DNA of 39,519 nucleotides from a virus (UHGV-0148166), one strand, 5' to 3'; positions 677-17,415 are shown, numbered from the stretch's first letter. The notes: generated from the sequence alone by a model not told the origin. A program made the numbers and translations.

Positions 677-753
<77 letters not shown>

Positions 754-12041: not shown

Positions 12042-12046
12042 CGTTA

Positions 12047-12068
12047 GTCTCCTTCGGGAGACTTTTTT
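12047..12068 (+). terminator. Rho-independent terminator (UUCG tetraloop)
   Basis: GTCTCC-TTCG-GGAGAC followed by TTTTTT. Confidence 0.8.
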
Positions 12069-12891: not shown

Positions 12892-12920
12892 TTTACAAGT
12901 TGGCAAGGTTATGATATAGT
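12892..12920 (+). promoter_or_regulatory. T4-type early promoter
   Basis: -35 TTTACA, 17-bp spacer, -10 TATAGT. Confidence 0.5.
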
Positions 12921-13055: not shown

Positions 13056-13613
13056 GTGAGTGAGTCGAAGAGAATCAATATGAAACGATTAGTATTAGAA
13101 GTTAGTCCACTTTTTGGTGAATTGGCTATAGAAAAAGTAAATAATATGTATCGTTTGACGCAAGAAGACGATATGCTATATTTTACGCCTAGTGAAATCA
13201 TTCATTTAACCCAAATTGAATATCCTTATACTGATAAAATAGTAAGTATCAATGATGAGCACAAAATTCATTTTTATTCTTCATGCCCAGGATTTAATAT
13301 TAAAAGTGAGTCAATGTGTTTATCAGTTATCCATTGGGATAGTTTTATAGCTAAGATTAAATATTTTTATTATTCTAATGAAAGAAAACATAGTTTAAAA
13401 TGGCTCAAAAATTGCAATGCTATTATTACTAACGCTTGCAATCAGAATGATGAAACTCTTTTAAATGTATCAAAATGTTATGAAGAGGGAGATGTCTTAA
13501 CTATTCGCCAAATCGACGATTTTCGATCACATATTGTCACATTTACCAAAGACGAAGCTATTGCACTAAAGACTTATCTTGATTCTGTCATTCCAACTAT
13601 GATTTCAAAGTGA
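13056..13613 (+). CDS. Hypothetical protein, paralog A of tandem pair (185 aa)
   Basis: GTG start after AAGGAG; C-terminal motif TKDEAIALKTYLDSVIPTM shared with next ORF. Confidence 0.55.
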   Translation: MSESKRINMKRLVLEVSPLFGELAIEKVNNMYRLTQEDDMLYFTPSEIIHLTQIEYPYTDKIVSINDEHKIHFYSSCPGFNIKSESMCLSVIHWDSFIAKIKYFYYSNERKHSLKWLKNCNAIITNACNQNDETLLNVSKCYEEGDVLTIRQIDDFRSHIVTFTKDEAIALKTYLDSVIPTMISK

Positions 13614-13619
13614 GGAAAT

Positions 13620-14141
13620 ATGTTTATTTCAAGTGGAAGTGGTTTAATTCGTGTTGAATTTAAAAATGACATCTTTCTTATTCAAGGAGATGATATTATT
13701 AAAATGAGTTATGATGAAATTAAGAAAATTTGTAATGCTCTTGAAAGTCATGGAAAAGTGAACGCTGTTATTGATATTGGTGATTTATGGGTGACACTTT
13801 ATGAAGTATCCGAAGGATTTAATATTGAAGATGAAAACAACATCTTAGCTATTGATAAAAGAAGCGATTTGTTTGATGTGTTAAAAGTTTATGAACAGTC
13901 AAACGGTGGAAGAAAAGCTGTATTGATTTATCAAAAACCACATTCATGTGGAACTGCTTCAATCATTTCAGATATTGAAGATGAAACTGATACTTATATG
14001 TGTGTTTTAAAAGCTGGTGGTGACCGTCATCCGGATTTTATTTCTATTCGTCAAAACAATGGAGAAATTTCATTATCAAAATCAGAAGCTGAAGCTATGA
14101 TTAAGTATTTAACAACTGTTACACCTTCAATGAAAGGATAA
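13620..14141 (+). CDS. Hypothetical protein, paralog B of tandem pair (173 aa)
   Basis: GAGGAAATATG; C-terminal motif SKSEAEAMIKYLTTVTPSM. Confidence 0.6.
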   Translation: MFISSGSGLIRVEFKNDIFLIQGDDIIKMSYDEIKKICNALESHGKVNAVIDIGDLWVTLYEVSEGFNIEDENNILAIDKRSDLFDVLKVYEQSNGGRKAVLIYQKPHSCGTASIISDIEDETDTYMCVLKAGGDRHPDFISIRQNNGEISLSKSEAEAMIKYLTTVTPSMKG

Positions 14142-14143
14142 TT

Positions 14144-14605
14144 ATGATTATTAATGAAAACTCTTGGCACTATAAATTATTCAAACTGTTTAACGACGAA
14201 TGGAAACGACCTAAGACACTATGCGCATATTTTTGGTCTATTGCCATTCCTACATTTTTCGTTTCTATTTTTGGATGTGCTATACTCGTAGGGCTAACAA
14301 TTATTTGTGCAGAAAGCCTACAACGTTGGCTTATTTTCGGTAGTTTATGGACTCTTCTTCCATCGGCATTTATACTTGCGCTTTTGGTTGTTTTACTTAT
14401 TATCGGTTCATTTGTTATTCCTGCACATTTGCGTGAAAAATATAAAGATTATAAATGGAAAAAGGATTATGCTTTACACGTAGAAAATATTGATAGGGCG
14501 TATAAAGGTTTACCTCCTATTCAACCCAAGAAATCGATTATCGTTGAATTTTTAAAAGCTCGTAAAGCTAAAGTATGTCCTGTTATTGAATATAAGGCTG
14601 AATGA
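14144..14605 (+). CDS. Membrane protein with 2 predicted TM helices (153 aa)
   Basis: Two long hydrophobic segments; ATGA overlap with next gene. Confidence 0.6.
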   Translation: MIINENSWHYKLFKLFNDEWKRPKTLCAYFWSIAIPTFFVSIFGCAILVGLTIICAESLQRWLIFGSLWTLLPSAFILALLVVLLIIGSFVIPAHLREKYKDYKWKKDYALHVENIDRAYKGLPPIQPKKSIIVEFLKARKAKVCPVIEYKAE

Positions 14606-15615
14606 TGAAAACAGTAATGAAAAGCTATTTTGGTAGTCATCTTTATGGAACTTCTACTCCAGAATCTGATGTAGATTTTAAAGAAATTTTTGTTCCTCCT
14701 GCTCGCGATATTCTTATCGGAAATGTTAAAGAGCATATGAGCAAAAACACTAACAACACATCATCTAAAAACACTAAAGATGATATTGACCATGAACTAT
14801 ACAGTCTTAAGTATTTCTTTAAATTAGCGGCAGATGGTGAAACTGTAGCATTGGATATGCTTCACACTCCGCCTGAACTAGTGGTTAAATCTGATTTGCC
14901 TGATGTATGGAAGTTTATTCAAGACAACCGTTCTCGTTTTTATACGACTAACATGAAATCCTATTTAGGATATGTTCGCAAGCAAGCTTCTAAATACGGT
15001 GTTAAGGGTTCTCGTTTGGCCGCATTACGTGATGTATTGAAAGTAGTTAATCAAATCCCTGAGCAATGGGTTGATTACCAAGAAGACGGTTCCATTAAGC
15101 AGCGTCGAACTAAAGTTGAAGATATTAAGCATCGTCTTCCAGAGAACGAATTCTGTGAATGGGTATTCCATAATCATGAGAAAACAGGCCCACAAACGTT
15201 CTACACTGTGTTGGGTCGTAAATATCAAACAACACTTTCTCTTATTGAGCTTAAGCAATCTTTGAATAAACTTGATGCTGAATACGGCGAACGTGCTCGT
15301 AAGGCTGAAGCGAATGAGGGCATTGACTGGAAAGCTCTGAGTCATGCTTGCCGTGGTGGACTCCAACTATTGGAAATTTACAAAACTGGCGACTTAGTCT
15401 ATCCACTTCAAGACGCTCCATTTATTCTCGACGTGAAGTTGGGTAAACATCCATTTAAAACCGTTCAAGAGTTTTTGGAAGATGTGGTCGATCAAGTAGA
15501 AGCAGCATCTACTGAAGCTTCTAAGAACGGTATGCAGCAAAAAGTAGACATGGGTTTCTGGGATGACTTCCTTGAGAAGGTCTATCTTGAAAACCACCGA
15601 AGTTATTATAAATGA
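14602..15615 (+). CDS. Pol-beta-superfamily nucleotidyltransferase-like protein (337 aa)
   Basis: N-terminal G-S-x3-G-T-x5-S-D-V-D motif (FGSHLYGTSTPESDVDF) and a later Asp (ETVALDMLH); helical C-terminal region. Confidence 0.6.
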   Translation: MMKTVMKSYFGSHLYGTSTPESDVDFKEIFVPPARDILIGNVKEHMSKNTNNTSSKNTKDDIDHELYSLKYFFKLAADGETVALDMLHTPPELVVKSDLPDVWKFIQDNRSRFYTTNMKSYLGYVRKQASKYGVKGSRLAALRDVLKVVNQIPEQWVDYQEDGSIKQRRTKVEDIKHRLPENEFCEWVFHNHEKTGPQTFYTVLGRKYQTTLSLIELKQSLNKLDAEYGERARKAEANEGIDWKALSHACRGGLQLLEIYKTGDLVYPLQDAPFILDVKLGKHPFKTVQEFLEDVVDQVEAASTEASKNGMQQKVDMGFWDDFLEKVYLENHRSYYK

Positions 15616-15617
15616 TA

Positions 15618-15642
15618 GGGAGCCTTCGGGCTCCCTTTTTTT
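15618..15642 (+). terminator. Rho-independent terminator (UUCG tetraloop)
   Basis: GGGAGCC-TTCG-GGCTCCC followed by TTTTTTT. Confidence 0.85.
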
Positions 15643-15667
15643 ATTTCAAAAATTTTTCACAAAACGG

Positions 15668-15696
15668 TTTACAAGCATAAAGCTTTATGGTACTAT
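15668..15696 (+). promoter_or_regulatory. T4-type early promoter
   Basis: -35 TTTACA, 17-bp spacer, TGG-TACTAT; 22-nt identity with promoters at 1241 and 17824. Confidence 0.6.
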
Positions 15697-15730: not shown

Positions 15731-16699
15731 ATGAAAACTGTAACTATCAATAAGGGTATCTACTTCGGTAAAGAAATCTCTGGAACTTTTGAGCTCTTAG
15801 GCGAATGGTTCCCAGATAATGCTCCGGTGGATGCACAAGGAGATGGTAAAGTTTTTGTTGAAATTGACGGTAAGCGTCGCGGTGTTTGGGTTTACAAATC
15901 AGACATTTCATATGATGGTGTAAAAGTTGAAGAAGTTAAAGAATCATATGAAGATATGAAAACCCGCATTAATAAAAGATTTAATGTTATGGGAATGATG
16001 ACGAATGGTATTATTAACGGAAACATTCGTTCATTAATTATCTCTGGTGCGGCGGGTATTGGTAAAACGTATTCTTTAGATAAAGCTTTAAATAAAGCAA
16101 ATGATATTGGATACATTGAGTATAAAAGCATTAATGGTAAAATCTCAGGTATCGGTCTTTATGAGCAGCTCTGGAATAATCGTGAAGAGAATTCTGTCCT
16201 TTTGATTGATGATGTGGATGTTTTCTCTGATATGGACATTCTTAATCTTCTGAAAGCTGCTCTGGACACTGGAGAGACCCGTAAAGTCTGCTGGAGCACT
16301 GCATCTTCTTACTTAGAAGAAAAAGGCATTGAGCGTGAGTTTGAATTTAAAGGAACGATTGTTTTTATCACAAACGTTGATATTGACCGCGAATTAGACC
16401 GTGGTACTAAACTTGCTCCACATTTACAAGCATTAGTGTCCCGCTCAGTTTATTTGGATTTGGGTGTTCACACTAATGAAGAAATTATGGTCAGGGTTGA
16501 AGATGTTATTCTTTCAACTGACATGATGCAAAAGCGCGGTCTTTCTGATGAAGAAACTTATAAAGCATTATCATGGATGAAAGTCAATGTTAACCGTTTA
16601 CGCAATGTTTCACTGCGTACTGCTCTTTATCTTGCTGACTTTATTATGACCGACAAAAACTATTGGGAAGAAATCGCTGAAACGGTATTGTTAAAATGA
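15731..16699 (+). CDS. AAA+-like P-loop ATPase (322 aa)
   Basis: Walker A GAAGIGKT, Walker B VLLIDDVD, sensor-like FITN; GGAGAATAAA RBS; the track's N-terminal extension covers the terminator and promoter. Confidence 0.65.
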   Translation: MKTVTINKGIYFGKEISGTFELLGEWFPDNAPVDAQGDGKVFVEIDGKRRGVWVYKSDISYDGVKVEEVKESYEDMKTRINKRFNVMGMMTNGIINGNIRSLIISGAAGIGKTYSLDKALNKANDIGYIEYKSINGKISGIGLYEQLWNNREENSVLLIDDVDVFSDMDILNLLKAALDTGETRKVCWSTASSYLEEKGIEREFEFKGTIVFITNVDIDRELDRGTKLAPHLQALVSRSVYLDLGVHTNEEIMVRVEDVILSTDMMQKRGLSDEETYKALSWMKVNVNRLRNVSLRTALYLADFIMTDKNYWEEIAETVLLK

Positions 16700-17415
16700 A
16701 AAAATATTTTACTATCTATAAAACTGAAATATTAAATTTAAAGACTGGCGTTAAGAAATATTATTATGGTCGACATATAACTAATAATATCAATGATTCG
16801 TATGTTGGTAGTGGAAATTATATAGAACGTGTAAAAGTGTCAAATGACCACATATTATCAAAAACGGTTTTAGAAGTTTTTGATAATTATGATAAAATGG
16901 TACAAGCTGAAATATTATATATCATGGCAGGTAAATTGAAATATGGAAAAAACTGTGTTAACCTGTCATACGGGGGTGAAGGAGGAAAGGTTGCAGATGA
17001 AACTAGAATAAAATGCAAAAAGCATTCTATAAATTTATGGAAAAATCCTAATCATATACAGCATATGAAGAAAAAGATGAAAGAGGTCACATCCACGCCG
17101 GAAGCTAAATTAAACACTTCAATAAAAACTTCGCAACGATATAAGGACCCGGTTTTTGTTAGAAAAGTTAGTAATATTATTAAAAAGAAACTAAGCAATC
17201 CTGCAGTAAAAGAAAAGCATATTAATGGAATTAAAGCTGCAAAGCGTTCTCATTTAACTATATGGCAGTATGAAGATGAATTATTCGAGCTTTGGAAAGA
17301 AACTAAATGTGGATGGAGAAAATTTACAAAGGAAGCTATAAAACACGGATATCCAAATGAACCGTATCGTAGTATGGTATCAACTTTTCAGAAAAGACAT
17401 TTAGAAGAATCCTAA
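16696..17415 (+). CDS. GIY-YIG homing endonuclease (Seg-like)
   Basis: YYYG...YVGSG GIY-YIG motif, GGEGG motif shared with the SegB-like ORF, NUMOD-like repeats, AT-rich. Confidence 0.7.
   Translation: MKKYFTIYKTEILNLKTGVKKYYYGRHITNNINDSYVGSGNYIERVKVSNDHILSKTVLEVFDNYDKMVQAEILYIMAGKLKYGKNCVNLSYGGEGGKVADETRIKCKKHSINLWKNPNHIQHMKKKMKEVTSTPEAKLNTSIKTSQRYKDPVFVRKVSNIIKKKLSNPAVKEKHINGIKAAKRSHLTIWQYEDELFELWKETKCGWRKFTKEAIKHGYPNEPYRSMVSTFQKRHLEES

Follow-up and report, generated by a model that had tools for sequence, protein, structure and literature searches.

The phage gene nrdC.11 encodes a long-form RlaP-family nucleotidyltransferase with a probable role in refilling broken RNA ends

The stretch of viral DNA considered here (UHGV-0148166, 39,519 nucleotides, called the window below) has a low GC content (about 34%) and carries nearly every gene on the + strand. 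Among these genes is nrdC.11, known from the phages T4 and T2, whose product belongs to the RlaP nucleotidyltransferases (NTases) and probably contributes to the repair of broken RNA. The open reading frame (ORF) reported in the initial annotation, at 14602..15615 (+), is present as described and encodes 337 residues if read from its first ATG. The start lies within the sequence ATGATGA, in which the in-frame ATG at 14602 adds one extra methionine and overlaps the TGA stop codon of an upstream ORF for a 153-residue membrane protein. The annotated start of orthologs corresponds to the second ATG, at 14605, which also stands at a more favourable distance from the AAGG Shine-Dalgarno sequence than the first. 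Residues are numbered from 14605 (336-residue form), one lower than in the initial annotation. The gene and the features within and directly behind it are the following, with secondary structure as predicted by AlphaFold2:

14605..15615, + strand: nrdC.11 coding sequence, 336 residues and stop codon
14629..14679, + strand: NTase motif FGSHLYGTSTPESDVDF, residues 9-25, with hG[GS] as G10 S11 and the predicted metal-binding pair D22-x-D24
14767..14796, + strand: K55-N56...D60-I-D62-H-E64, where D62 (in KDDIDHELY) opens strand 61-67
14839..14865, + strand: ETVALDMLH, residues 79-87, containing helix 80-86 and D84
14971..15015, + strand: long-form signature Y123-x3-Q127-x2-K130-Y131-G-x-K-G135-x-R137, a loop between helices 118-129 and 137-150
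15064..15228, + strand: variable beta-rich insert, residues 154-208, with five strands, low conservation and gaps, splitting the helical domain
15241..15609, + strand: C-terminal helical bundle, residues 213-335, with Y227-G-x-R230, D241-W-K243, H247, R250, P267 and K278-x-G280
15617..15643, + strand: intrinsic terminator right after the nrdC.11 stop codon, with an 8-bp G+C stem, a UUCG loop and a T run

The encoded protein is 98% identical to T4 NrdC.11 (NP_049709, 'nucleotidyltransferase' in RefSeq), with six amino acid differences, and 100% identical to the phage T2 protein P0001. The gene also occupies the same position as in T4, in the order mobD.1-like genes, nrdC.11, nrdC.10, and is followed by the same terminator and the same downstream early-type promoter. 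Upstream the two differ, T4 carrying the mobD HNH endonuclease and the window carrying the membrane ORF and two y05I-like genes. The window ORF is the ortholog of T4/T2 nrdC.11 and thus of a gene that is already known, being annotated in T4 and T2 and assigned to RlaP in the literature. With megablast, nrdC.11 is detected in 672 phage records, chiefly of Tequatrovirus, while tblastn finds homologs in 1565 phage records from the Straboviridae and beyond, and an exhaustive HMMER search returned 3416 clusters (50% identity level) at E<=0.001. The literature found on nrdC.11 and nrdC.10 consists of comparative-genomics mentions and one deletion study; T4 survives deletion of the nrdC.11-mobD.3 segment (PMC9825161). 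Many GenBank and UniRef entries label NrdC.11 orthologs as 'thioredoxin', and mobD.x genes as 'molybdopterin-guanine dinucleotide biosynthesis protein MobD'. Both labels look like products of the gene names, from which they appear to have spread, rather than of homology, and in the case of NrdC.11 orthologs 'thioredoxin' is wrong.

The specific family to which the protein belongs emerges from profile searches. The Pfam model RlaP (PF10127, 'RNA repair pathway DNA polymerase beta family') is matched with 44.2 bits (E=2.5e-11), its cutoff being 23, with the alignment covering model positions 23-142 of 249 only, and PF10127 is carried by all 240 of 240 homologs among the matches listed. PHROGs places the protein in phrog_388, nucleotidyltransferase (E=8e-137), while the generic NTP_transf_2 model is matched below threshold. 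The initial annotation had proposed an enzyme in the style of cGAS, DncV and OAS. These enzymes, including the cGAS/DncV-like nucleotidyltransferases (CD-NTases), have the catalytic motif hG[GS] and [DE]x[DE] in common with NrdC.11, a motif that is found superfamily-wide. PADLOC, including its CD-NTase models, gave no family at E<=1, and Pfam gave no match at E<=0.1 to SMODS, Mab-21 or OAS1_C, nor to PF01743 of CCA-adding enzymes and poly(A) polymerases. The NCBIfam model MntA scored 13.2 bits against a cutoff of 60, and no separate HEPN gene adjoins nrdC.11. Membership in the CD-NTase, OAS, MNT and CCA-enzyme groups was rejected on these Pfam, PADLOC and MntA scores, together with the fold comparisons described below. 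As the RlaP model is matched above threshold and no CD-NTase model is matched, the motif is best seen as the superfamily-wide catalytic signature, and NrdC.11 is an RlaP-family (RNA-ligase-associated Pol-beta) NTase, not a CD-NTase, cGAS or OAS enzyme.

The match of FGSHLYGTSTPESDVDF to the NTase pattern, which the initial annotation had noticed, is not due to chance, since its motif residues are invariant or nearly so across homologs. G10, S11, G15, S21, D22 and D24 keep this status in 145 representatives (36-58% identity), in two curated alignments and in both long and short cellular RlaPs. Across the same representatives and curated alignments, the invariant or nearly invariant positions comprise G10 S11, L13 Y14 G15, S21 D22 x D24, K26 and P31 in the N-terminal part, followed by K55 N56, D60 x D62, G78 and D84; they continue with Y123, Q127, K130 Y131, G135 and R137 in the middle and with Y227 G228 x R230, D241 W K243, H247, R250, P267 and K278 x G280 in the C-terminal part.

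The Pol-beta NTase fold proposed at the outset is likewise borne out by the structure prediction. AlphaFold2, run on an 81-sequence alignment, yielded a model with an NTase sheet and a helical domain at a predicted local distance difference test score (pLDDT) of 89.5 and a predicted template modelling score (pTM) of 0.75. The core consists of strand 2-9, helix 11-14, strand 23-30, helix 33-38, strand 44-48 and strand 61-67; helices 68-76 and 80-86 and further helices up to residue 150 follow, and then the five-stranded insert 154-208 and the helical bundle 213-335. G10-S11 lies at the junction of the first strand and its helix, and D22 and D24 open the second strand, as in Pol-beta NTases. The initial annotation had tentatively assigned the third catalytic carboxylate to the aspartate of ETVALDMLH, an assignment that does not hold, because this residue, D84, lies in helix 80-86, whereas D62 lies on strand 61-67 and is invariant. 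The latter applies to 70 long and 17 short RlaPs and to two curated alignments, and D22, D24 and D62 are aspartate in every short RlaP aligned. The model thus places the third catalytic carboxylate on the sheet, at D62, with D22, D24 and D62 as the predicted metal ligands. D84 is a family-wide fourth acidic residue, the equivalent of the glutamate in the 'NPNxLE' helix of RlaP: it is at least 97% conserved, its position is glutamate in 17 of 17 short RlaPs, and hhalign sets it opposite the E of NPNILE in an RlaP from Deferribacter.

Fold comparison against the Protein Data Bank (PDB) with Foldseek returned weak matches (E ~6e-3, template modelling (TM) score ~0.26) to 3c18, ANT(4')/KNTase, Hailong HalB, AAD(9), Tam41 and LinB, the closest solved folds being HalB, 3c18 and kanamycin NTase (KNTase). 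No cGAS, OAS or CD-NTase structure is among the matches listed. Of the relatives foreseen in the initial annotation, KNTase and MNT-HEPN do appear as fold neighbours, while CD-NTases and OAS are missing from those matches. In BFVD the fold is frequent among 'nucleotidyltransferases' of phages and giant viruses. A sequence search of the PDB with the protein, the family profile and a canonical short RlaP as queries gave no relevant chain.

What RlaP enzymes do has been addressed both by prediction and by biochemistry. The family owes its name to an association with RNA ligases, and its predicted task is to replace nucleotides that RNA ends have lost, for instance through the action of RloC (PMC7824862); in jumbo phages its distribution mirrors that of RNA ligases (PMC7824862). 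RloC removes the wobble nucleotide, creating a lesion that is expected to impede phage tRNA repair (PMC2610378, PMC3458546). A preprint of December 2025 reports that PfRlaP and PaRlaP, short forms from RtcB-RlaP-RtcA operons of Pseudomonas, add 1-2 NMPs (nucleoside monophosphates) or dNMPs (their deoxy counterparts) to the 3'-OH of RNA, prefer Mn2+, and are inactive on 3'-phosphate ends, DNA and protein (PMC12776372). On a nicked-tRNA mimic, both act preferentially at the 3' terminus of the 5' half, and they partly restore the aminoacylation of a tRNA missing one anticodon-loop nucleotide (PMC12776372). The 3'-OH product suits ligases that join 5'-phosphate ends (PMC12776372), and T4 Rnl1 is such a ligase. 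The same work names T4 NrdC.11, in cluster 5 of PF10127, as an 'RlaP of unknown function', and reports for PfRlaP 'three strictly conserved aspartic acids' (PMC12776372), which must correspond to D22, D24 and D62 of NrdC.11.

NrdC.11 resembles these assayed enzymes in the G-S pair, the D-x-D pair, the third aspartate and the acidic residue in the next helix, as well as in a C-terminal helical domain that carries K...[H/Y]..R and a proline, and, as far as its cellular long-form homologs are concerned, in the association with RNA-repair genes. It differs from them by being about 80 residues longer, with the beta insert 154-208 and a Pfam alignment over the N-terminal ~135 residues only, and by motifs that they lack (K55-N56, D60, E64, Y123/Q127/K130-Y131/G135/R137, Y227-G-x-R230, D241 and K278-x-G280). 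The two also fall into different sequence clusters, NrdC.11 into 5 and the Pseudomonas enzymes into 1a (PMC12776372). NrdC.11 is therefore described here as a long-form RlaP. Common to long and short RlaPs are G10, S11, G15, S21, D22, D24, D62, [DE]84, K243, [HY]247, R250 and P267, while K55, N56, D60 and E64 distinguish the long form from the short one; the signature Y123...R137 is invariant or nearly so in long forms and absent or gapped in short ones. The phage records with a short RlaP number 86 and include phiKZ-like phages and others, but no Escherichia phage.

The relationship of the C-terminal half to canonical RlaP is less immediate. Taken alone, this half gave no match to Pfam, and a direct hhalign comparison of the NrdC.11 profile with a short RlaP was insignificant. 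A 338-residue protein from a Deferribacter megaplasmid, however, matches both Pfam RlaP (positions 2-246) and the NrdC.11 profile (301 columns, probability 99.6%). Through this intermediate and the common K243, [H/Y]247, R250 and P267, the C-terminal half is linked to its counterpart in canonical RlaP. As judged from sequence, it is homologous but divergent, being split by the beta insert and equipped with mostly basic motifs found in the long form only.

The genomic surroundings of long-form RlaPs were followed in cells and in phages. The cellular set comprises 80 loci from a scan of one genome per species, with full-length long-form homologs of 33-54% identity; their neighbours were counted by means of tblastn, clustering of ORFs called de novo and comparison with Pfam, and many of the loci lie on chromosomal contigs of megabase scale. 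A second RlaP is encoded within the fetched flanks of 23 of the 80, in about 21 cases directly downstream on the same strand and often overlapping. Pnkp and RtcB are each found nearby at 10 loci, Hen1 at 7, Ro60/TROVE and an HD phosphohydrolase at 6 each, and RtcA at 2. At least one of these partners (second RlaP, Pnkp, Hen1, RtcB, Ro60, RtcA or HD) is present at 39 of the 80 loci. The clearest arrangement is an operon on plasmid pASDW145_1 of Asticcacaulis sp. DW145, which encodes Hen1, Pnkp, a long RlaP and a short RlaP in this order (locus L093, 2077-7790). Over 328 residues, the long RlaP of this operon shares 35% identity with NrdC.11 (E=5e-62), and it carries the same invariant residues. 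In phages, the homolog of phiM12 is flanked by genes for an Rnl2-type and an Rnl1-type ligase, and metagenomic phage-like contigs carry RtcB or HD genes near the homolog.

We consider it probable that NrdC.11 is the long-form RlaP of T4 and T2 that adds one or a few untemplated NMPs to the 3'-OH ends of broken RNA prior to ligation. In the proposed mechanism, D22, D24 and D62 would hold two divalent metal ions, probably Mn2+, and NMPs taken from nucleoside triphosphates would be joined, one or a few at a time and without a template, to the 3'-OH of the broken RNA, the main targets being the 5' halves of tRNAs left behind by host anticodon nucleases. Repair would begin after a nuclease has cut the tRNA, with or without excision of a nucleotide (the former being the RloC type). 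The phage Pnkp would then convert the 2',3'-cyclic phosphate to a 3'-OH and phosphorylate the 5' end, NrdC.11 would refill the missing nucleotide, and Rnl1, a 5'-P/3'-OH ligase, would seal the break. The gene, probably expressed from the early region, is dispensable on laboratory hosts. If this is true, NrdC.11 is a third enzyme in the T4 tRNA-repair pathway beside Pnkp and Rnl1, which would explain how T4-like phages escape RloC-type defences, whose lesion had been regarded as defeating phage tRNA repair. The refilling of excised nucleotides was predicted in 2016 and 2021 and received biochemical support in bacterial relatives in 2025. The proposal thus builds on biology that is already known and is not a discovery. 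Of the reading in the initial annotation, the NTase identity stands and the suggested repair of RNA 3' ends is plausible, while the likeness to cGAS and OAS and the third carboxylate do not stand. What is gained here are the corrected catalytic residues (D22, D24 and D62, with D84 as the fourth acidic residue), the recognition of a long-form subfamily and a flag on the 'thioredoxin' label.

Several observations weigh against this function. The activity data on RlaP come from short forms, which by sequence analysis belong to another cluster than NrdC.11. In all NrdC.11-type proteins, the match is confined to about positions 20-144 of the 249-position Pfam model, because the beta insert splits the helical domain, and the C-terminal half, expected to bind the substrate, is divergent in sequence from canonical RlaP. 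Where the long form is paired with a short RlaP in cells, their functions may differ. A recognisable RNA-repair neighbour is missing at 41 of the 80 cellular loci, and among 85 phage loci only about 8 have a ligase, Pnkp or RtcB gene within 10 kb. In T4 itself, pseT and rnlA lie about 80 kb from nrdC.11, and the window contains no gene for an RNA ligase, Pnkp, RtcB or a second RlaP.

Three other functions have to be weighed, all of them less well supported than the refilling of RNA breaks. An enzyme that repairs the CCA end of tRNAs or tails RNA in general, rescuing trimmed CCA ends or marking RNAs for decay, would use the same chemistry. T4-type phages have, to our knowledge, no CCA-adding enzyme of their own, a phage tRNA gene is present in the window, and HD phosphohydrolase genes adjoin the long form at no fewer than six loci, bacterial CCA-adding enzymes themselves containing an HD domain. 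The assayed RlaPs moreover labelled full-length tRNAs and rRNA-sized species (PMC12776372), yet in the nicked-tRNA mimic the favoured site was the 3' terminus of the 5' half (PMC12776372). Furthermore, NrdC.11 does not match the Pfam family of CCA-adding enzymes and poly(A) polymerases, and the recurrent neighbours of its relatives are the break-sealing Pnkp ligase, Hen1, RtcB and RtcA, not factors of 3'-end maturation, so that we regard this function as unlikely.

The fold also invites comparison with enzymes acting on quite different substrates. NrdC.11 could synthesize a signal or decoy that disturbs a host defence, either a linear oligo(deoxy)nucleotide, standing in for instance for the oligodeoxyadenylate of HalB, or a decoy of the CBASS or Thoeris type, but the likeness to HalB is one of fold only (14% identity, Foldseek TM 0.26, E ~8e-3). 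According to PDB titles and citing papers (including PMC13276650), Hailong HalB (PDB 9dbh/9dbj) has 217 residues and a channel partner, HalA, which its oligodeoxyadenylate (DNA) signal keeps closed. NrdC.11, in contrast, has no HalA-like partner and no sequence-level relationship to HalB; even the family profile finds no sequence match in the PDB, PADLOC returns nothing, and the fold matches listed are free of cGAS, OAS and CD-NTases. The genes beside nrdC.11 (y05I-like genes, a small membrane ORF, an AAA ATPase and a homing endonuclease) include no signal-activated effector. The cellular homologs reside in RNA-repair operons, not beside effectors or channels, and the assayed RlaPs halt after 1-2 additions, which makes a signal or decoy synthase highly improbable. 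The transfer of nucleotides to a protein or small molecule, as known from kanamycin NTase, MNT or GlnE, with AMPylation of a host factor or metabolite as the outcome, would agree with fold neighbours such as ANT(4')/KNTase, LinB, AAD(9), MNT-HEPN pairs, GlnE and DrrA and with a C-terminal bundle that resembles the substrate-binding helical domains HEPN and KNTase_C; we nevertheless give this function very little weight.

A further proposal concerns the long form as such. The beta insert, the extra basic motifs and the near-obligate pairing with a short RlaP at roughly one quarter to one third of the cellular loci raise the tentative idea, which we hold to be rather doubtful, that long-form RlaPs are a functionally distinct class. 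Long and short RlaPs would then divide the labour between two enzymes, by nucleotides, by ends or as a heterodimer, comparable to pairs of CC-adding and A-adding enzymes, and in T4-type phages the long form would act alone with Pnkp and Rnl1 as a counter to RloC-type nucleases. The arrangements in cells and phages differ: T4-type phages carry the long form alone, with ligase and kinase genes elsewhere in the genome, whereas in cellular pairs such as that of Asticcacaulis a short RlaP directly follows the long form and the ligase is encoded in the same operon. What interest remains attaches to the long-form subfamily and to the tandem arrangement of long and short RlaPs in the RNA-repair operons of cells. 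The pair of long and short RlaP (loci L098-L171 and Asticcacaulis) often stands inside Pnkp/Hen1 or RtcB/RtcA/Ro60 clusters, and no mention of such a tandem cassette was found in the RlaP literature searched. Genes for HD phosphohydrolases adjoin long-form RlaP in phage-like and bacterial contigs (L007, 912-2371; L008, 1451-2910; L130, 7001-8507), and the HD phosphohydrolase is a possible partner of long-form RlaP in the healing of 3' ends.

The remaining features of the window that were annotated around nrdC.11 are listed here:

677..753, + strand: single tRNA-Arg gene (anticodon TCT), near the window start
12892..12920, + strand: candidate sigma-70/T4-early-type promoter, TTTACA-17-TATAGT with TG, from a consensus scan only
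13056..13613 and 13620..14141, + strand: two tandem y05I/mobD.1-like paralogs with Pfam T4_y05I_N and T4_y05I_C
14144..14605, + strand: ORF of the 153-residue membrane protein, directly upstream of nrdC.11
15668..15696, + strand: early-type promoter of nrdC.10
15731..16699, + strand: nrdC.10, an AAA/STAND-like P-loop ATPase with weak matches to AAA_14, AAA_22 and nSTAND3 (phrog_1250)
16696..17415, + strand: homing-endonuclease-like ORF of 239 residues (phrog_314, E=3.8e-30), starting within the nrdC.10 stop region

The terminator behind nrdC.11 has a folding energy of -17.5 kcal/mol (z=-3.8) and is identical in T4. A terminator-like site at 12046-12063 precedes the genes upstream, and none other is found on the + strand until 15617. 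Judged by its sequence, the promoter at 12892..12920 may drive a unit of the two y05I-like genes, the membrane ORF and nrdC.11, with nrdC.11 probably being the last gene of a unit that starts at this early-type promoter.

In T4, the place of the segment 13056..14605, with the two y05I-like genes and the membrane ORF, is taken by a single mobD.1 and the mobD HNH homing endonuclease. The membrane ORF, a conceivable HalA-like partner, lies upstream of nrdC.11 in closer relatives only among the 85 phage loci. The downstream gene nrdC.10 was considered as a functional partner and rejected, as it follows nrdC.11 at 36 of the 85 phage loci (closer clades only) and at none of the 80 cellular loci, and as a strong terminator and its own promoter separate the two genes in the window. 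Among relatives, nrdC.10 is more conserved than nrdC.11. Between nrdC.10 and nrdC.9, where the window has the homing-endonuclease-like ORF, T4 lacks a gene, while RB32 and RB33 carry a 'site-specific intron-like DNA endonuclease' annotated at this place.

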